Shown here piece by piece: positions 15,074 through 34,993 of a stretch of DNA of 64,000 nucleotides. The notes beneath the pieces were generated by a model. That model was not told where the DNA came from. It made no database searches and saw nothing but the letters and a program-made list of their open reading frames with translations. The stretch is from Myxococcota bacterium (GTDB lineage: Bacteria > Myxococcota_A > UBA9160 > UBA4427). How positions within the stretch are numbered: position 1 is the stretch's first letter; every line of letters begins with the position of its first letter. The stretch lies in contig JAPKBZ010000007.1 in the NCBI GenBank assembly GCA_028823175.1, positions 8,496 to 72,495 of the forward strand. Direction: 5' to 3'. Both the position numbers and the translations under genes were made by a program.

Positions 15074-15954
15074 GGATTGACCCCGCCTTCTTCATCCGCC
15101 AACTGAATCAGGTAGGTCCCGTAGCTATTGGATTTCATCTGGGTCCCGATTGCCCTCAATTGCCCGGTGTCGAGCCAGCCCCGGCGCCAGGCAATTTCCT
15201 CGATACAGGCCACCTTGAGCCCCTGCCTCTCCTGGATGGCCTGGATATAACTCGAGGCCTGTTGGAGCGATTCATGGGTTCCCGTATCGAGCCAGGCGAT
15301 GCCTCGGCCGAGCAATTCTACGCGCAAGGTGTTTCGCTGGAGATAGGCCAGGTTGAGATCGGTGATCTCCAACTCGCCCCGGGGAGAGGGCCGCAACTTC
15401 GAGGCGATCTCGACGACGTCGTTGTCGTAGAAGTAGAGGCCGGTGACCGCCCAGTGGGAGCGAGGTTTTTCGGGTTTCTCTTCGATGCTCACGGCCTGGC
15501 CCTCGGCATCGAAGCTCACCACGCCGTAGCGTTCGGGGTCGCTGACCCGGTAGCCGAAGACCGTCGCGCCGTCCTTCTGGGTCACAGCTCGGCCGAGGGA
15601 TTCGGCCATCCCCTGCCCGTAAAAGATGTTGTCGCCCAGGGCCAGGGCCACGGGATCACCGCCGATGAAATCAGCCCCGATCAGGAAGGCCTGGGCCAGC
15701 CCCTCCGGGCGTGGCTGCACGGCGTATTGGATACTGATCCCGAGCGTCTGGCCATCTCCGAGGACGCGTTGAAAAGCCCCTTGATCGTGGGGTGTGGTGA
15801 TGATCAGGATGTCGCGAATTCCCGCCAGCATGAGAGTCGACAGCGGGTGGTAGATCATTGGCTTGTCGTAGACGGGCAGCAGTTGTTTGCTGACGCCCAT
15901 CGTGATGGGATAGAGCCGGGTTCCGGAACCCCCGGCCAGGATGATCCCCTTCAT
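15070..15954 (-). CDS. rfbA: Glucose-1-phosphate thymidylyltransferase
   Basis: Motifs [35 protein letters not shown] and LGDNIFYG. Confidence 0.92.
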
Positions 15955-16034
15955 GTGCAGCTACTCCTGGAGTCTTGGGACGACTTCGTCGTGTAGGGCA
16001 CAGTATTCGCCCCTGCCGATAGTAGGTCATCTCG

Positions 16035-17354
16035 CTAGGGGAGAAAGTCTTTGACCTTCTTGAGTTTCGCCGGGAGGTATTCGTCCATCACGTAGTTGAG
16101 CCCCCACATGGCCAGGGATTGTTGCTCGGCGCGAACGCCCATAGAGATCAGTTGTTCGATGGCCTTCTTCCAGGGCTTGTGGGCCTTGAAGAAGGGATCG
16201 TTCTTGAGGGCGTCCTTCGCGCGCTTGATGTCGACGTCGAGCAGGGGATGAGTCGGCAGCTCGTAATCGATGATGTCCTGGGGTGTCACCCCCAGGTAGT
16301 GAGTTTGGGGGACTGAAAAGAATTGCGAGATATGCGCTGCGTTCCCCGAACCCACTTTCAAAGTTCGGTAGATATTTGAGAAGCCATAGGGGTCGCAGTC
16401 AACGAAGGCAAAGACGGCGAGCTTGCACTCATCCGAGAGCTTGCGGATGAAGCGGCGCGTCGACCGGGTCGGGACGCCCGCCAGGGAAACCAGAATGCAG
16501 TTCTCGCGTTGCCAGAACTTGTGGCTCTGAAGCCTCTGGAAGATGCCGCCGGTTTCGATGGCGAGAATGAACTTGGCCTTGGTTTCGAAAGAGAGGTGTT
16601 CCACCGTCGAGGGAATCGAGTAGGCACCGGAGCCGAAGCGGGTACAGTCGATGCGCTCGACCTGCCCGGTCTCTATATCGGGATCGATTACGGTGAGTTG
16701 GCCTGCGACGGCGCCGCCGTGTTCGTCGGGGACATATCGGAGTTGCTCTCGCGAGACGCCCTGCATGGAAAACATGGCTTCGATGTCGTCCATCACGGTG
16801 TCGGATTCCGTTTGGTCGTCAAATTTCGCGGATTCCCAATTCTTGCTCTGGTAGTAGGCGTCTCGCTTGGTGGCGAAGTCGTTGGCTTCGATGAGGTCCT
16901 TCGAGAGTCCCATCAGGCGCAGGGTCTGGGCAAAGCCTCGGACTGTATTCACCGTTAGGGTTCGGGTCTTGGTCTGCTTTCCAATCTCGAAGTAGCCCTT
17001 CTTGGCAGAGTACGAAACATTGCCCAGGGACCGAATCGGGAATTTCAGATCGGGCTTGCGCGTTTTGAGGATTTCGGTCCTGATTGCCTCGGCGGTGCCG
17101 ACAATCAGGTTGACAGTCTTGGTGTCTCGATTCCCCCCCCGCGCTGCCTTCCGTCCTCGCGAAGCGGCGGCAGCCTTCTTTCGGCTCCCCTTTTTTCTTG
17201 AAGCCTTCTTCTTGCGGGCAGCCTTCTTAGCCGCCCCTTTTTTACTCGCAGCCTTCTTGCGCACCGCCGCCTTTCGCGGTGCGGCGGATTTTTTCTTTCG
17301 CGCCGCTTTCTTTGCGCCCAATTTCCGGGCCCCGGCTTTGCGTCGAGCAGTCAT
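16035..17354 (-). CDS. top6A: DNA topoisomerase VI subunit A (Spo11-like) with a Lys/Ala-rich N-terminal tail
   Basis: 5Y-CAP tyrosine context KRDAYYQS. Toprim ILAIETGG and VDCDPYG. ATG 17354 is preceded by an AAGGAG-like RBS and lies 20 nt after the top6B stop. The longer ORF to 17735 overlaps top6B and is rejected. Confidence 0.85.
   Translation of the reverse strand: MTARRKAGARKLGAKKAARKKKSAAPRKAAVRKKAASKKGAAKKAARKKKASRKKGSRKKAAAASRGRKAARGGNRDTKTVNLIVGTAEAIRTEILKTRKPDLKFPIRSLGNVSYSAKKGYFEIGKQTKTRTLTVNTVRGFAQTLRLMGLSKDLIEANDFATKRDAYYQSKNWESAKFDDQTESDTVMDDIEAMFSMQGVSREQLRYVPDEHGGAVAGQLTVIDPDIETGQVERIDCTRFGSGAYSIPSTVEHLSFETKAKFILAIETGGIFQRLQSHKFWQRENCILVSLAGVPTRSTRRFIRKLSDECKLAVFAFVDCDPYGFSNIYRTLKVGSGNAAHISQFFSVPQTHYLGVTPQDIIDYELPTHPLLDVDIKRAKDALKNDPFFKAHKPWKKAIEQLISMGVRAEQQSLAMWGLNYVMDEYLPAKLKKVKDFLP
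17136..17354 (-). repeat. Low-complexity imperfect tandem repeats encoding the K/A/R tail of Topo VI-A
   Basis: Encodes MTARRKAGARKLGAKKAARKKKSAAPRKAAVRKKAASKKGAAKKAARKKKASRKKGSRKKAAAASRGRKAARGG. The plus strand reads as gccttcttc-type repeats. Confidence 0.8.
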
Positions 17355-17374
17355 CGTCTCTCCTTGGGTTCCGC

Positions 17375-19162
17375 CTAGAGTTTCCGGGTGCGCTCCAGAA
17401 CGTCCGTCAGCTTGCGGGTCAATGTCCCGGTTTCGCGATCGCCCAGCGAGAGAATTTCCTGGAGTCCAACGGCGACTTGAGGGATGTATTTCTCGATGTA
17501 GGCCGCCTTCTTGGCCTCTTCGGCGACGCGTTTCTGTTTGCGGAGATAGCTCGTCATCTTGCGTCCGCACTCCTGGAGGGCAAAGCGGAACTCCTTGATG
17601 ATTTCCGGGTATTGGGCGACGGCATCCTTGCTTTCCGACGTAAAGGGCACCCAGACGCTTGCGATGTGCACCATGACCAGGAGTGGGCCGACGGGAAGGG
17701 CACCTTTGGGGTGTTGCACGAGGTAGGACTTCCAATTCGTCGCCGAGACAGCCCGGGTGATCGCACAGGCGCCTTGCTGGTATTGCAGGGGGACGCGGTT
17801 CGCGTAGCGGTAGAGCAGCGCGCTGTCGTCGCTATGCATCTCTCCACCGTACGCGAGGCCGACTTCGACCAGAAAGGGATTGCCCCGATAGACGGTGGGG
17901 CGGCGCGTGACGGCGGAGTAGAAATCTGCCTTGACCTCGGCTTTGAGTGCGGCGAGGATGAGATCTTCACCAATGGGGGCGATGCAATCCGTTGGCGGGC
18001 TCATGATCCGGGTCTGCTTGATGGCCTTGTAGACGGCGTCGGCCTCTTCCCGGCGCATGTCGCCTGGTCGGCGCTTGGGAGAAAGGCCCGCCCTCTCACA
18101 AATTTCGGCGGCCACCCGTGGCGAGACACGTGAGAAATCGTTGCGCAGGCAGCTGGCGAGATTGCGCGACCCGGTGTCTCGGAACATCTGCATCAACACC
18201 CCCAACTCGATTCCGTAGGGATGAGGCTGGATCTCGTCGGTATGCGCGGGAAGCTTTTTGGTCACCCGGGGAAAGACGTGCTCCGCGCCGTGTTCCTCGG
18301 CCGCCGGGGGGACGTAGGTGATCTGGGCATGGGGGTTTGCCAGCGAGATCTGGCGGATGTAGTTGTCCACCGAGTGCTGCCCACCCCGGTAATGACCTTC
18401 GAGTTCGATCTCGACCCGGGTGCCGTGATGCTTGGGCCACTTGACGACTACGTCCCGCTTAACCTGGGGCTTGTTCTTTTGGGTGTCGATAACGAGCTCA
18501 AACTCATGCGCCTGTTTTCGTTTCCCCGTTTTCGTCAGAATCTTGACCGGCTTGCCGGTGGTCAGCAGGCCGTACATGCCCGCTGCACTGATGCCAATCC
18601 CCTGTTGCCCACGGCTTTGGCGCAGGCGATGAAATTTGGAACCGTAGAGGAGTCGACCGAAAATTTTGGGTACCTGTTCGCGCACGATGCCCGGCCCGTT
18701 GTCCTCGAGAGCGACCCGGAAACGCGATTCGGCGAGTTGCTTGATCTCGATCCGGATTTCGGGGACGACTCCCGCCTCTTCGCAGGCGTCCAGGGCATTG
18801 TCCACCCCCTCCTTCACCGTGGTCAGGAGGGCCTTGGAGGGGTTATCGAAACCCAGGAGATGGCGGTTTTTGGCGAAGAATTCGGAAACCGAGATGTCCC
18901 GCTGCTTCTCGGCCATTTCGTCGGCAGTGCTCGAGGGACGCCTCTTCTTGGCCCCCGCCCCCTTCCTCGCGGCCTTCTTCTTGGGGGCAGTCTTCTTTTT
19001 AGGGGCAGCCTTCTTCTTGCGCGCCGCCTTCTTTTTTCCCGCGGCTTTCTTTTTTCCCGCCGCCTTCTTTTTCCTCGCGGCCTTCTTGCGGGCGCCCGCC
19101 TTTTTCTTCTTGGCTCCTGTTTTCTTCCTCGCGACGGATTTCTTTTTTTTCGGCTTTGCCAT
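17375..19162 (-). CDS. top6B: DNA topoisomerase VI subunit B (GHKL ATPase) with a Lys/Ala-rich N-terminal tail
   Basis: VSEFFAKNRHLLGFDNP, Bergerat N-box EGVDNALDA, G1 DNGPGI and G2 GQQGIGISAAG. About 520 aa excluding the tail, matching archaeal Topo VI-B size. Confidence 0.85.
   Translation of the reverse strand: MAKPKKKKSVARKKTGAKKKKAGARKKAARKKKAAGKKKAAGKKKAARKKKAAPKKKTAPKKKAARKGAGAKKRRPSSTADEMAEKQRDISVSEFFAKNRHLLGFDNPSKALLTTVKEGVDNALDACEEAGVVPEIRIEIKQLAESRFRVALEDNGPGIVREQVPKIFGRLLYGSKFHRLRQSRGQQGIGISAAGMYGLLTTGKPVKILTKTGKRKQAHEFELVIDTQKNKPQVKRDVVVKWPKHHGTRVEIELEGHYRGGQHSVDNYIRQISLANPHAQITYVPPAAEEHGAEHVFPRVTKKLPAHTDEIQPHPYGIELGVLMQMFRDTGSRNLASCLRNDFSRVSPRVAAEICERAGLSPKRRPGDMRREEADAVYKAIKQTRIMSPPTDCIAPIGEDLILAALKAEVKADFYSAVTRRPTVYRGNPFLVEVGLAYGGEMHSDDSALLYRYANRVPLQYQQGACAITRAVSATNWKSYLVQHPKGALPVGPLLVMVHIASVWVPFTSESKDAVAQYPEIIKEFRFALQECGRKMTSYLRKQKRVAEEAKKAAYIEKYIPQVAVGLQEILSLGDRETGTLTRKLTDVLERTRKL
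18938..19162 (-). repeat. Low-complexity imperfect tandem repeats encoding the K/A tail of Topo VI-B
   Basis: Encodes MAKPKKKKSVARKKTGAKKKKAGARKKAARKKKAAGKKKAAGKKKAARKKKAAPKKKTAPKKKAARKGAGAKKRR, i.e. AAGKKK/AARKKK units. Confidence 0.8.
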
Positions 19163-19310: not shown

Positions 19311-19604
19311 TCAGCAGTAGACGTGGGATTGGGTCGGATGGGGGCCGGGCACTTGGGAGAGCTTGATTCGGCCGGATTCGAGCATATGCGCCAGGGTGGC
19401 GAGGACTTCCTCGTCGGAATCCGCGACATCGGCAATCGCCTCGAGGACCTCGATGAAGGTGCAGTCGATCGCGTGGGCTGGGGCGTCCACGGGCGGTGCG
19501 ATCTGGGGCAGATCGCGGCGCTCCGCCACATCGGCGGCGAGGGCCGTGGGCCGAACGCTCGAGCGGTGGAGTCTTGCTGAGGACGAATGGGAAAGGCTTG
19601 TCAT
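19311..19604 (-). CDS. Small acidic hypothetical protein (97 aa) upstream of top6B
   Basis: ATG 19604 is preceded by an AGGGAG RBS. Sequence MTSLSHSSSARLHRSS...IEVLEAIADVADSDEEVLATLAHMLESGRIKL.. The longer ORF to 19820 crosses the AT-rich promoter region and is unlikely. Confidence 0.45.
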   Translation of the reverse strand: MTSLSHSSSARLHRSSVRPTALAADVAERRDLPQIAPPVDAPAHAIDCTFIEVLEAIADVADSDEEVLATLAHMLESGRIKLSQVPGPHPTQSHVYC

Positions 19605-19639
19605 GATCTTGCTCCCTTGGGTTTGCAGTATTCCCGGGA

Positions 19640-19740
19640 TTCGCCGGTGCGTTCCCGTCGGGTGTATATCAGTGCACATTTCATGCCTGAAAGTTTCGAA
19701 GAACTGAAGAAGAATAAATTCCTTTAAAATCAAATGATTA
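19640..19740 (-). promoter_or_regulatory. AT-rich putative promoter region for the small ORF / top6BA transcription unit
   Basis: The only markedly AT-rich stretch for several kb (…tttcgaagaactgaagaagaataaattcctttaaaatcaaatgatta…). It lies between the comM stop and the small ORF. I cannot assign exact -35/-10 boxes. Confidence 0.3.
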
Positions 19741-19831
19741 CGCCTCCCCCGGGCGGTGGATGGCTCTGGCCCTCGGAGCCGAGTGGTCGTAGGGGACCGC
19801 GAGGGCTGCAATTCGACCACATCCGGTCGGG

Positions 19832-31172: not shown

Positions 31173-32513
31173 ATGAAAATTCTGATCATTGGCGCGGGTC
31201 TATCGGGCCTGGCCGCTGCTTGGCGTCTCCAGCGGGCGGGGCATGCGGTGGAACTCGTCGAGCGCAGGGATCCGGCGACGCCGGATTGTGATTTTCCGCC
31301 GGTGCAGACCCTCCACTCCAGCGATCGCCACACGCTCAAGTGGATCGAGGAACTCGGCCTTTCCGATACCCTACTCCCCCTGCGCCCGGTTCAACTCGTT
31401 CAGGCCTGGCGGGACAGGCCCCACGCCATCGAGCCCCAGCGCCTGCTCGGGGTTGCGGCGATTTCCGGGGTGTCCCGCCGTGACAGCCTTCGGCTGATGC
31501 GCTGGTCCCGCTTGATGACGCGTTATCTCCCGCTGCTCGATCCCACGGCGCCCGAGCTCGCGGCCTCCCTCGACTATCGAAGTGTTTCGGATTTCGCGGG
31601 CCTCTATTTTGGCAAGAGCGCGTTGGATTATTGGGTGGCTCCCGAGGTCGAGGACTTTTTTTCGGGAGAGGCGAGTCAACTTTCCAGGGTGACAGCGCTG
31701 CTGCTCTGGCGCGCCCGAATGATGGATCCGCAGGGGATCACTTTTACGGGCTTGCCGCGACTGGGGCTGGGTCATCTCTTCTCGGCGGCCCGCCGGCTCC
31801 TCCCCAAGCGCTACCACGCCGTTGCGAGCGGAATCGAGGGCAGCGGAAAGCAGGGCTATAGCCTGGCCTGCGAGGGGTCAGCTCCGGCCTCGCTTCAGGC
31901 GGACGCGGTGGTCCTCGCGACTTCCCCCGGCGAAGCGAATCGCCTTGCACCTTCTCTTCTGCAGCCCGCCGAGCGCGACTACCTGGGGGCCGTGCGCGAG
32001 CGCCCCTCGGTGACCCTCACCGCCGAACTCGAACGCGTCCCGGGCGGCATGCCCGAGCGCGTCCGTCTGCCTCGGGGCGAGGGTTTTTCGGCGGGGAGCA
32101 TCGTTTTCGAGCCCGGGCTCCCGGGGACTCGGGGCGGGAGCGGCGCTGGGCTGGCCACGGTCCGGAGCCGAGAGTCCTTCGCCATCGGCGCCCGGGAGGT
32201 CTCCGATGATGCGGTGGTCACGAGCCTGCTCGCCGACCTCAAGCTTCTTTATCCCGCGCTTTCGGGCAATCTGGGGAAGCTTCACCTGGCGCGCAGGGAG
32301 GCGGGTATCCCGGCTTTCGACGTGGGAGCCTATCGGGGCCTCGAACGTTTCCGGAGGGTCCAGGCGGATCGTCGCGCCCTCGGGCGCCGGCTCTATTTCG
32401 CCGGCGACTACCTGGTGGCTCCGGGCGTCGAGGGGGCCGTGGTCTCAGGTTTTCGCGCGGCGGCCGACTTGCTCGCCGATGCGGCGGAAGGCCCGTCCGA
32501 GGACCGTGGTTAG
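31173..32513 (+). CDS. FAD-dependent oxidoreductase (protoporphyrinogen/amine oxidase-like)
   Basis: Rossmann motif MKILIIGAGLSGLAAAWRLQRAGHAVELVE and C-terminal FAGDY motif. An alternative ATG lies at 31161. Confidence 0.75.
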   Translation: MKILIIGAGLSGLAAAWRLQRAGHAVELVERRDPATPDCDFPPVQTLHSSDRHTLKWIEELGLSDTLLPLRPVQLVQAWRDRPHAIEPQRLLGVAAISGVSRRDSLRLMRWSRLMTRYLPLLDPTAPELAASLDYRSVSDFAGLYFGKSALDYWVAPEVEDFFSGEASQLSRVTALLLWRARMMDPQGITFTGLPRLGLGHLFSAARRLLPKRYHAVASGIEGSGKQGYSLACEGSAPASLQADAVVLATSPGEANRLAPSLLQPAERDYLGAVRERPSVTLTAELERVPGGMPERVRLPRGEGFSAGSIVFEPGLPGTRGGSGAGLATVRSRESFAIGAREVSDDAVVTSLLADLKLLYPALSGNLGKLHLARREAGIPAFDVGAYRGLERFRRVQADRRALGRRLYFAGDYLVAPGVEGAVVSGFRAAADLLADAAEGPSEDRG

Positions 32514-34993
32514 AAGAGTTCGGCCAAGGTGACCCCCTCGCCTCCCTCGTCCTGAGGAGCCGTTCGAAACGCCTTGACCGAGAGGCATTCGGCGAGGAAT
32601 TCGCGTACCGCGGCGCGCAGGGCGCCGGTTCCGATTCCGTGAATGATGCGCAGGCCGACGCAGCCGTCGGCGGCGGCCCGGTCCAGGCTTTCGGAGAGTC
32701 GGCCGAGGGCGGCCTGGACTCGCTCGCCTCGCAGATCGCAGCTCTGGATTCCGCCCCCGAGGATCACCCCGTCCTCCTGGGGCTCCACCCTTTCGACGCG
32801 GACCCGTTGCTCCGGCGCCTTCGTGGGCCCTTCGTCCGGAGTGGGGCGGCCCACCTGCTCGGCGGCCAGAACGAGTTTTTTCCCGCCCACGCGAACCCCG
32901 ACCCGGCCCCTGCGATCGGGCAGGCTTTCGAGGGTTCCGTGGCTGCCCCCGAGAACCCGGAGCGTGTCTCCGGGCCGGGCGCGTCGCCAGTCCACGGGTT
33001 GGAGGCGACTCGCTGGGGCCTTCGGGGCCGGCCCGGCTTCGGCCTGATGCTCCTCGTTGCGCGCCTTCAGGCCCTGGAGTTGATCTCGGGCCTGTGCAGC
33101 TTTCTGGGAGGTGGGACCGCGTTGCAGGTCCCGGATCACTCCGGCGATTTCGGCGTGGGCCTCCTTGAAGGAGGTATTCAGATCCTTTTGCATTTTGAGG
33201 AAGAGTTCGTCGCGTCGCTCCTGCAGGCGCTCCAATTTGGCCCGATAGTCGTCGCGGACGCTTTCTCCTTCTGCGCGAATCCGGGAGGCCTTTTCCGTTT
33301 CGCTCGCCAGGGTGGCACGACTGGTGGCCAGCTCGCTCAACATGCGTTCGAGCTTGCGGTCATCGCGGTCGAGCAGGGCATCGGCCCGGGCGAGGACATC
33401 GCTGGGCATTCCCATGCGCGCCGCGACAGCCGAGGCCGATGAAACGCCGGGTGCTCCGATCTGGATCCGGTAGGTGGGGGCGAGGCTCTTGGGGTCGAAT
33501 TCGACGCAAGCGTTCTGGAAGCGCGAGTCGACGTCGGCCATCTCCTTGAGCAGGTTGTAGTGGGTCGTGGTAATCACACGGGCCCCGCGATCGGCAAGGC
33601 TCTCGAGAATCGATTGGGCCAGGGCGGCGCCCTCCCCGGGGTCCGTGCCCACGCCGATCTCGTCGAGGACGATGAGGGAGTGCGGACCGGCGCGGCCAAC
33701 GATGTCCGCGAGATTCGCCATGTGCGCGGAGAAGGTCGAGAGGCTTTCCTCGATATTTTGATGATCTCCGATATCTGCCAGCAAGTACTCGATGGCGTCG
33801 ACCCGGGCGCCGGCTTCGCAGGGGACATGGAGTCCTGCTCGGACGAAGAGCGCCGCGAGTCCCACGGCCTTCATGGCGACGGTCTTGCCCCCGGCATTGG
33901 GGCCCGAGAGGACGAGGACGGAGAAGGGGTCGCCTAGACGCAGATCGTTGGCGACGCAGTCTTCCCGGTCGATCAGGGGGTGACGGAGCCCGGGCAACTC
34001 GAAAACCGCACCCTCGTCGACCTGGGGAGAGGTAGCGTCCATCGTGACCGAGAGCCTGCCCCGGGCAAAGGCCAGGTCGATGCGAGCAAGAGCGTCGAGT
34101 CCGCTCCGGATCGGACCCGAAACCTGAGCCACGGCGCTCGAGAGCTCCTCGAGGACGCGCCGAATTTCTCGGCTGACATCGAGCTCGGCTTTTTTGAGTC
34201 GATTATTCACCTCGATGACCGCTTCGGGTTCGACGAAGAGCGTCGTCCCCGAGCGCGAGGCATCGTGAACAATGCCGCTGACCCGGCCCCTGAAATCCGC
34301 TTTGACCGGGAGCACGTAGCGATCGTTGCGCACGGTGTAGTAGGAGTCGGAGAGGTGCCGACTGATCTCCGGGTCGCGGACGTAGCGCTCGAGGCGTTTC
34401 TGAAGGTCGCGCGAGAGCTGAAGGATTTCGCGGCGTGCGGCGGCTAGCCGGGGTGAAGCCCGATCGAGAACCTCTCCGGAGGGGTCGATGCAGTGCTCGA
34501 TCTCTTTTTCGAGTTCGCCCTGCTCCTCGATCTGTTCGCAGGCCTCGGCCAGTGTGGGTGCCTGCTCGGCGTTGCGCCGAAAGAAGCGGGCGGTCAGCCG
34601 CAGGGTCGCCAGGGTCGAAGCGATCTCGACGAGTTCCGGAATTTCCAGCAGGGCACCCTTCTCGGCTCGGGAGAGGGGGTGGGCGAGGTCGGCTGTGGCA
34701 CCCAGGGGCGGGGCGAGCTCGGCATCGAGCAGGCTCCGGGCCTCGTCGGTTTCCTGGAGTTTTTTACGCAGTCCCTGCAGGGTGGGCTCGAAAAGATGCG
34801 CTGGCTTCAGGGGACGGAAGCGCGTTGCGACCCCGGCGGTTGCAGTCCCAGCGGAATTTTCGCCTGGCGGGTTGCTCGCGGCTTCGTCGAGCCATTTTCG
34901 GCCCTGGGCCGTACGGCACTGATCCCGCAGTCGTTCGACCACCTTGGGCCATTCGAGGGCTTCAAGAGTCTCCTGGGCGACGCGAAATGACAT
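32510..34993 (-). CDS. mutS2: Endonuclease MutS2
   Basis: Walker A SGPNAGGKTVAMK, DEIGVGTDP, a long coiled-coil and a C-terminal Smr domain (LRIIHGIGTGALR). Confidence 0.92.
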   Translation of the reverse strand: MSFRVAQETLEALEWPKVVERLRDQCRTAQGRKWLDEAASNPPGENSAGTATAGVATRFRPLKPAHLFEPTLQGLRKKLQETDEARSLLDAELAPPLGATADLAHPLSRAEKGALLEIPELVEIASTLATLRLTARFFRRNAEQAPTLAEACEQIEEQGELEKEIEHCIDPSGEVLDRASPRLAAARREILQLSRDLQKRLERYVRDPEISRHLSDSYYTVRNDRYVLPVKADFRGRVSGIVHDASRSGTTLFVEPEAVIEVNNRLKKAELDVSREIRRVLEELSSAVAQVSGPIRSGLDALARIDLAFARGRLSVTMDATSPQVDEGAVFELPGLRHPLIDREDCVANDLRLGDPFSVLVLSGPNAGGKTVAMKAVGLAALFVRAGLHVPCEAGARVDAIEYLLADIGDHQNIEESLSTFSAHMANLADIVGRAGPHSLIVLDEIGVGTDPGEGAALAQSILESLADRGARVITTTHYNLLKEMADVDSRFQNACVEFDPKSLAPTYRIQIGAPGVSSASAVAARMGMPSDVLARADALLDRDDRKLERMLSELATSRATLASETEKASRIRAEGESVRDDYRAKLERLQERRDELFLKMQKDLNTSFKEAHAEIAGVIRDLQRGPTSQKAAQARDQLQGLKARNEEHQAEAGPAPKAPASRLQPVDWRRARPGDTLRVLGGSHGTLESLPDRRGRVGVRVGGKKLVLAAEQVGRPTPDEGPTKAPEQRVRVERVEPQEDGVILGGGIQSCDLRGERVQAALGRLSESLDRAAADGCVGLRIIHGIGTGALRAAVREFLAECLSVKAFRTAPQDEGGEGVTLAELF

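Follow-up and report, generated by a model that had tools for sequence, protein, structure and literature searches.

Archaeal topoisomerase VI (Topo VI), of which structures from Methanocaldococcus jannaschii (PDB 1d3y), Methanosarcina mazei (2q2e, 9o0g) and Saccharolobus shibatae (2zbk) serve as references here, is a type IIB DNA topoisomerase built from two subunits, A and B. The M. mazei enzyme acts distributively, and a KGRR loop in its B subunit senses DNA crossings, strand passage being abolished when the loop is neutralised (PMC5922973). Topo VI has also been catalogued in 17 bacterial families of seven phyla, three of them families of the Myxococcota; the bacterial enzymes cluster next to those of the Methanococcales, Topo VI-carrying bacteria outside Pseudomonadota and Terrabacteria are without Topo IV, and bacteria are without RHL1 and BIN4, which eukaryotic Topo VI complexes need (Allen & Maxwell 2024, PMC11302465). 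Here we describe an adjacent top6B and top6A gene pair in a 64,000-nucleotide stretch of DNA from a Myxococcota bacterium (assembly GCA_028823175.1, contig JAPKBZ010000007.1, positions 8,496 to 72,495; hereafter the window). The pair very probably encodes a functional Topo VI, and both of its subunits begin with a long tail rich in lysine and alanine.

Profile, sequence and fold searches agree on the Topo VI B plus A identity, which an earlier reading of the window from its sequence alone (the sequence-only reading) had proposed, and place the two products in Topo VI-B and Topo VI-A/Spo11, respectively. The top6B product matches the Pfam domains HATPase_c, HATPase_c_3 and, over the full profile, Topo-VIb_trans (5.6e-60), all above curated cut-offs, and passes the NCBIfam Topo VI-B equivalogs NF003218/PRK04184 (686 bits, cut-off 274) and TIGR01052 (566 bits, cut-off 380.7). 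The top6A product exceeds the cut-offs of TP6A_N (55.9 bits, cut-off 26), Topo_VI_alpha and TOP6A-Spo11_Toprim (1.2e-57, 195 bits). The closest structural references are M. jannaschii Top6A for the A subunit (1d3y; E 3.5e-107, 55% identity) and M. mazei Top6B for the B subunit (2q2e_B; E 1.1e-158, 49% identity). An AlphaFold2 model of the B subunit, with a mean predicted local distance difference test score (pLDDT) of 67 and a core mostly at 70–90, has only Topo VI-B chains among its top 16 PDB fold matches, and GyrB, ParE and MutL follow far behind.

The residues that carry out ATP hydrolysis, signal transmission and DNA cleavage in the archaeal enzymes can be followed through both subunits. 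Within the GHKL domain of the B subunit, catalytic E118 (18809–18811), Mg-binding N122 (18797–18799), the G1-box residues D154, G156 and G158, and K176 align with S. shibatae E38, N42, D76, G78, G80 and K98, the first two also aligning with M. mazei E44 and N48, and the G2 box reads GQQGIG. The H2TH region aligns to 2q2e_B without large gaps and keeps the basic residues R340, R345 and R385, counterparts of M. mazei R263, K268 and K308. In the transducer, the anchoring N455, the WKSY motif at 477–480 (17723–17734; W477-K478-x-Y480), the switch lysine K512 (17627–17629) and R534 at the start of the stalk helix could each be mapped onto S. shibatae and M. mazei counterparts, and in the AlphaFold2 model a long stalk helix spans residues 519–571. 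In the A subunit, R164, Y168, E267, D319 and D321 correspond by alignment to M. jannaschii R99, Y103, E197, D249 and D251. The motifs that the sequence-only reading had quoted for B (VSEFFAKNRHLLGF, EGVDNALDA, DNGPGI and GQQGIGISAAG) and for A (KRDAYYQS, ILAIETGG and VDCDPYG) are all found in the translations, and the B core, put there at about 520 aa, measures 517 aa.

Domain order in the B subunit runs from the N-terminal tail through N-strap, GHKL ATPase, H2TH and transducer to the C-terminal stalk helix, and in the A subunit from the tail through a B-binding N-terminal region, 5Y-CAP/winged helix and all-beta linker to Toprim. The two-subunit architecture and domain order are those of the archaeal enzymes, and the archaeal ATPase residues, WKxY motif, stalk arginine, H2TH basic residues, 5Y-CAP Arg/Tyr and Toprim E/DxD are all present here too. 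The differences lie elsewhere: the archaeal references are without the ~75–78-aa tails of both window subunits, the M. mazei KGRR loop is replaced by RGGQH, and M. mazei K399 by Asn476. The window B subunit also ends 23 residues past the equivalent of M. mazei residue 495, which indicates that the M. mazei C-terminal domain is absent; no Pfam Top6b_C match was found in window B, while P0141, a representative of its relatives, has one. As judged by alignment, the elements for ATP-driven type IIB strand passage, apart from the altered crossing-sensor loop, are all intact and correctly placed. We put the probability that the pair encodes a functional type IIB DNA topoisomerase (Topo VI) at about 0.9, a figure that covers its identity and core mechanism.

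By analogy with the archaeal enzymes, the two proteins would assemble into an A2B2 heterotetramer in which ATP binding makes the B subunits dimerise around a T-segment and the two Tyr168 residues, with Toprim-bound Mg2+, cut a G-segment, leaving the 2-nt 5′ overhangs expected of Topo VI. Passage of the T-segment and resealing would then relax supercoils and, above all, decatenate DNA. In the cell the enzyme is probably the main decatenase (and a relaxase), likely replacing Topo IV, a role modelled on the one expected for the catalogued bacterial enzymes, that of a decatenase in bacteria with gyrase and often without Topo IV (PMC11302465). Complementation of an E. coli parE(ts) strain has been reported for M. 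mazei Topo VI (PMC11302465).

The N-terminal tails of both subunits contain neither aspartate nor glutamate (Table 1), and they are the only Lys-rich segments in all six frames of the window. Residue 5 of M. mazei and S. shibatae Top6B aligns with window B residues 79 and 85, and residue 5 of M. mazei Top6A with window A residue 69, and these archaeal proteins have no tail. In the AlphaFold2 model, B residues 1–90 have pLDDT values below 50 and no secondary structure, and the B tail is predicted to be disordered; both tails give weak matches to histone-H1-like profiles, and the A tail also to HC2. Most of the B tail is encoded by tandem repeats, resolved by Tandem Repeats Finder (TRF) into 3.4–4.4 copies of period 18 with a 79–83% match, or 4.1 copies of period 36, and an 18-nt unit keeps the reading frame. 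Among the 120 closest B homologs, the median N-terminal extension is 62.5 aa, with 34% K/R and about 1% D/E. Both subunits bear strong tails in the window's clade and in one Bdellovibrionales metagenome-assembled genome (MAG); a Planctomycetota clade has them on B alone and two loci on A alone, and they are absent in most Acidobacteriota. That the tails are bacterial and not archaeal is a statement about these named genome loci and the three archaeal PDB references. The tails may have been built by expansion of the 18-nt repeat and gained and lost repeatedly among bacterial lineages.

Both tails are very likely translated, judging from where start codons occur. For the A subunit, the next in-frame ATG lies in the core (roughly residue 147, located by eye in the translation), and because no other ATG precedes the core and a strong Shine-Dalgarno sequence precedes the tail, the tail must be translated. 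For the B subunit, 21 of 55 related loci have no ATG, GTG or TTG within 14 codons of the core, so that in those loci the Lys-rich stretch must be translated. No earlier description of basic tails or of an altered KGRR loop in Topo VI was found in the searchable literature; in the catalogue of bacterial enzymes the word 'lysine' occurs 0 times and basic tails are unmentioned (PMC11302465). As far as that literature goes, what is new here is the presence of tails on both subunits and, to a lesser degree, the altered loop, and both are real features of this gene pair that the sequence-only reading had left unmentioned.

A role for the tails is suggested by the distributive mode of the M. mazei enzyme together with an analogy to Streptomyces topoisomerase I (TopA), in which lysine repeats stabilise the enzyme–DNA complex and confer processivity (PMC5714199). 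TopA likewise has a long, disordered, Lys/Ala-rich repeat region resembling a histone H1 tail; it is, however, a type IA monomer with its tail at the C-terminus, whereas the window pair would form a type IIB heterotetramer with N-terminal tails on two subunits. Four disordered tails per tetramer could act as non-specific DNA-binding arms that raise DNA affinity, residence time or processivity, an idea to which we give somewhat less than even odds. Because the tails are N-terminal, those of B would precede the N-strap at the ATP gate and those of A would sit at the A–B stalk, beside the G-segment path; the N-terminal region of Top6A is known to bind the B stalk (PMC9665070). The fuller proposal, in which histone-H1-like arms tether the enzyme to the nucleoid, increase crossing capture or processivity and thereby define a mechanistically distinct bacterial variant of Topo VI, is more tentative, and we regard it as appreciably less likely to hold than to fail. 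Eukaryotic (plant and protist) Topo VI is also non-archaeal and has also acquired N- and C-terminal subunit extensions (PMC9665070), but these are not AKKK-type repeats like those of the window tails.

The second difference from the archaeal enzymes concerns the crossing sensor. In a pairwise mapping, M. mazei K186, G187, R188 and R189 correspond to B residues R259, G260, G261 and Q262, and one arginine and one histidine replace the three basic residues of KGRR. Of the 120 closest B homologs, 117 have the form Y-RGG[Q/R]HSV and the remaining three Y-RTGRHSV. Likewise, YRGG[Q/R]H is the form at nearly every locus of the window's clade, with YRTGRH at one (L010) and YRGGKQ at two (L021 and L025); elsewhere among bacterial clades the loop is still KKGKH or KRGRR, and in most other Top6B clusters it has two to three basic residues. 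The idea that the B tail compensates for the basic residues lost from the loop was ruled out, as loop depletion and tails are uncorrelated: RGGQH also occurs in clade members with weak tails, and strong tails occur together with intact KKGKH or KRGRR in other bacterial clades.

Several observations weigh against reading the pair as a functional Topo VI with DNA-binding tails. The A subunit falls below the cut-offs of all six NCBIfam sub-branch equivalogs (the best, NF003337, at 459 versus 675 bits), although these are narrow sub-branch models and all three Pfam domains pass. With its KGRR loop down to one of three basic residues, the enzyme may differ in crossing recognition. No gyrase or Topo IV gene was found among the six scanned open reading frames (ORFs) of at least 517 aa in the window; this result covers the window alone, and a replacement of Topo IV is a proposal for this organism. 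Absence or weakness of the tails in several related lineages indicates that they are dispensable for basic function, and window B has a methionine at residue 83, just before the core, so that a tail-less isoform from an internal start is conceivable. These last two points, with the 18-nt tandem repeats that make up the B tail and the wide variation of the tails in length and sequence, also favour an alternative in which this is an ordinary archaeal-type Topo VI whose tails are neutral slippage expansions, or whose B tail is an untranslated leader with the start at Met83. We consider this unlikely, yet it is by far the most serious competitor. The frame stays open, Lys-rich and almost free of acidic residues across orthologs down to ~54% identity, and the start-codon evidence given above bears against a leader at the B loci and for the A tail alike. 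Met83 moreover falls at a conserved Leu/Met position inside the N-strap (Leu9 in M. mazei), and both subunits have acquired tails, in a window with just these two segments of the kind.

Two further alternatives, both very improbable, concern the identity itself. A Topo VI-like nuclease/ATPase of a defence or condensin-type system (JetD/Wadjet, Gabija/OLD or a MORC-type GHKL protein), or a Spo11-like break-maker, would account for the weak PADLOC match of the A subunit to JetD (22 bits, E 1.5e-5), and JetD and Topo VI-A share a Toprim plus winged-helix fold (PMC13040014). That score is, however, about one tenth of the Topo VI Toprim score; the B subunit has no PADLOC match, contains the transducer specific to Topo VI and passes the NCBIfam cut-off for the Topo VI-B equivalog; every ATPase and cleavage residue is intact, and the ±10 kb around the pair contain no jetABC, gajB or other defence genes. 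In Topo VIII the B and A parts are reportedly fused and plasmid-borne, while mini-A is said to be a lone A-like protein, and the carriers of such type IIB enzymes are said to be plasmids, proviruses and viruses. An enzyme of this kind on an integrated plasmid or provirus, or else archaeal DNA present as a recent island or as a binning contaminant, would fit the high similarity of both subunits to euryarchaeal enzymes and a slight dip in GC content across the pair. Against it stand two separate genes with full-length Topo VI profiles in canonical domain order, a chromosomal housekeeping context in which no integrase, transposase or tRNA is nearby, a third-codon-position GC content (GC3) equal to that of the neighbours, with the overall dip accounted for by the AAG/AAA-rich tails, and the same bacterial neighbours on independent assemblies and in many related species. 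Membership of a defence family, membership of Topo VIII and misplaced Tyr or Toprim residues, which the sequence-only reading had named as outcomes that would speak against Topo VI, were each checked, and none was found.

Relatives of the pair, read as a resident bacterial Topo VI, are widespread. They occur in at least 218 GTDB species-representative genomes across Myxococcota, Planctomycetota, Acidobacteriota and Bdellovibrionota, the best 80 of which are mostly MAGs labelled Myxococcota/'Deltaproteobacteria', Planctomycetota, Acidobacteriota or Bdellovibrionales, with a few labelled Spirochaetaceae/Spirochaetales, Proteobacteria or Pseudohongiellaceae. Clustered at 90% identity, a protein database yields at least 8000 clusters with E <= 1e-30, many of which already carry the NCBI or JGI name 'DNA topoisomerase VI subunit B', and a representative library clustered at 50% identity yields 795 at the same threshold. 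Given this spread, its annotation at NCBI and its publication (PMC11302465), the claim in the sequence-only reading that Topo VI is only sporadic in bacteria was overstated. The window A subunit is 36% identical to the M. mazei protein versus 55% to that of M. jannaschii (M. jannaschii and M. mazei share 43%), which fits a bacterial cluster placed beside the Methanococcales in PMC11302465. By these identities the pair belongs to that bacterial cluster, with an A subunit closest to Methanococcales enzymes. It falls in a phylum (Myxococcota) represented among the catalogued enzymes (Anaeromyxobacter, Vulgatibacter, Pajaroellobacter, Bdellovibrio, Pirellulales and others) and has the same proposed origin as these, namely transfer from Euryarchaeota near Methanococcales. 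Its lineage, an uncultured marine-type Myxococcota MAG clade, lies outside the 17 families.

Two side observations concern these relatives. An intein with a LAGLIDADG homing endonuclease interrupts the GHKL domain of many Top6B relatives at about window-B residue 180 (P0122, P0124, P0125, P0141 and other representatives of 1000–1150 aa); the window top6B has none, and P0122 combines the intein with a 108-aa basic N-terminal extension. In addition, top6A occurs with no top6B in the flank (up to 6 kb upstream) at loci L036, L038, L039, L043, L045, L047–L050, L053–L057, L067 and L081, mostly Acidobacteriota MAGs apart from L045 (unclassified) and L067 (Planctomycetota). Their top6A products are 72–76% identical to the window core (69% in L067), and the two genes seem unlinked in that mostly Acidobacteriota lineage; several of the contigs are short or end near the gene, and some absences may reflect missing sequence.

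The pair is a further example of a published, automatically annotated kind of operon already known in the Myxococcota and other phyla, and as such it changes little. It does show bacterial Topo VI to be far wider in uncultured lineages than the 17 catalogued families, and in its own lineage to be an old, vertically inherited chromosomal gene pair. Archaeal Topo VI is weak and distributive, and a natural version with four polycationic arms would offer a test of non-specific DNA tethering as it bears on the processivity, decatenation preference and crossing recognition of a type IIB enzyme. If the proposed role is true, the tails and the lysine repeats of actinobacterial topoisomerase I would have evolved convergently.

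The genomic setting points to long residence. Within ±10 kb the pair is flanked by genes for a comM-type Mg-chelatase ATPase, rfbA, rfbC, fur, a MATE transporter, a patatin, VWA proteins and similar genes, and no integrase, transposase or other mobility gene was found in this range, nor any tRNA in the window. GC3 is 0.76 for top6B and 0.74 for top6A, against 0.70–0.86 for the neighbours, and the slight dip in total GC across the pair (0.587–0.605 versus 0.62–0.69 nearby) is attributable to the AAG/AAA-rich tails. The order comM – small ORF – top6B – top6A – rfbA – rfbC – fur is kept in ~17 species-level relatives with A identities from 94% down to ~70%, and an identical A protein with the same neighbours is present on 9 independent metagenome contigs. 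The closest proteins are named by NCBI as coming from Myxococcota, Deltaproteobacteria or Proteobacteria MAGs. Gene order and sequence comparison thus place the pair as a long-resident, vertically inherited one in a Myxococcota clade. This upholds the view in the sequence-only reading of a resident pair and not a fresh island, along with the flanking genes, shared GC3 and lack of nearby mobility genes on which that view had drawn.

The two genes are separate, adjacent and co-oriented, and their adjacency is found again in most related loci. Lying 20 nt apart with a strong Shine-Dalgarno sequence between them, they are arranged for co-expression; the coordinates, spacing and AAGGAG-like ribosome-binding site given earlier agree exactly with the ORF list and sequence. 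A scan for promoters and terminators returned one promoter-like site ~50 nt ahead of top6B and, on the minus strand, no terminator past the end of top6A, with counts not above shuffled expectation in either case. In-frame stretches of up to 706 codons upstream of top6A at some loci had suggested B–A gene fusions. Inspection ruled this out: over the 3′ end of top6B, an alternative frame stays open in the GC-rich DNA, as it does for the 566-aa ORF of the window itself, and the real top6A genes start at MAAKKK-type tails.

Table 1 Features of the top6B–top6A locus, in window coordinates
Feature	Coordinates	Strand	Description
top6A	16035–17354	minus	Topo VI subunit A; ATG at 17354; 439 aa
Toprim domain	16062–16571	minus	E267 (16554–16556), D319-x-D321 (16392–16400); Pfam
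5Y-CAP / TP6A_N domain	16740–16937	minus	R164 (16863–16865), catalytic Tyr168 (16851–16853); Pfam
A tail	17130–17354	minus	residues 1–75; 23 A, 22 K, 12 R, no D/E
B–A spacer	17355–17374	minus	20 nt, reads GCGGAACCCAAGGAGAGACG; AAGGAG Shine-Dalgarno 5 nt before top6A ATG (direct reading)
top6B	17375–19162	minus	Topo VI subunit B; ATG start; 595 aa; TAG stop 17375–17377
Transducer domain	17507–17998	minus	residues 389–552; Pfam Topo-VIb_trans and residue mapping
Loop RGGQH	18374–18388	minus	B residues 259–263, at M. mazei KGRR186–189 position; pairwise mapping
GHKL/Bergerat ATPase core	18485–18835	minus	residues 110–226; Pfam HATPase_c, HATPase_c_3
B tail	18929–19162	minus	residues 1–78; 34 K, 20 A, 7 R, no D/E
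Tandem 18-nt repeats	18963–19109	minus	six-codon, KKKAAG-type; encode most of B tail; TRF
Small ORF	19311–19604	minus	97 aa; directly upstream of top6B, same strand

The small ORF is possibly the first gene of the top6 operon; it could be an operon partner of Topo VI or simply a syntenic gene. When its relatives were turned into a profile, that profile located the same ~50-aa domain immediately ahead of top6B at 17 related loci (L007–L009, L011–L013, L019–L021, L023, L025, L027, L029, L031, L041, L042 and L066), always on the top6 strand and between comM and top6B, except that L020 has no comM in its 6-kb upstream flank. It carries a conserved acidic motif of ~35 aa (TLLELVxAIxEVTDDDREVVATVxHLLxSGRVRL) and has no Pfam, PADLOC or PDB match. 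A word-indexed search gave only six close homologs, and its NCBI name is hypothetical protein (OSB70_02915). More speculatively, this acidic protein may act on the enzyme or on its basic tails as a partner or regulator. The intergenic region that separates comM from the small ORF (19605–19831) includes a markedly AT-rich stretch, CATTTGATTTTAAAGGAATTTATTCTTCTTCAGTTCTTCGAAACTTTCAGGC, against a genomic GC content of ~63%. A sigma-70 scan found no consensus match in the region; from its composition and position it is nonetheless a plausible candidate promoter region for a small ORF – top6B – top6A unit.

Downstream of top6A and in the same orientation come rfbA and rfbC, with an intervening 80-nt gap (15954–16035) that lacks a terminator-like hairpin, and the adjacency of top6A to rfbA/rfbC is kept in ~20 related loci; such conservation suggests that these sugar-nucleotide genes may share a transcript with the topoisomerase pair. 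Elsewhere in the window, the largest ORFs encode MutS2, a CoA-transferase, an M18 aminopeptidase, an acyl-CoA dehydrogenase and a carboxylesterase. The MutS2/Smr protein (827 aa with MutS_V and Smr domains; 32510–34993, minus strand) is encoded by the only other DNA-metabolism gene among the scanned window ORFs.

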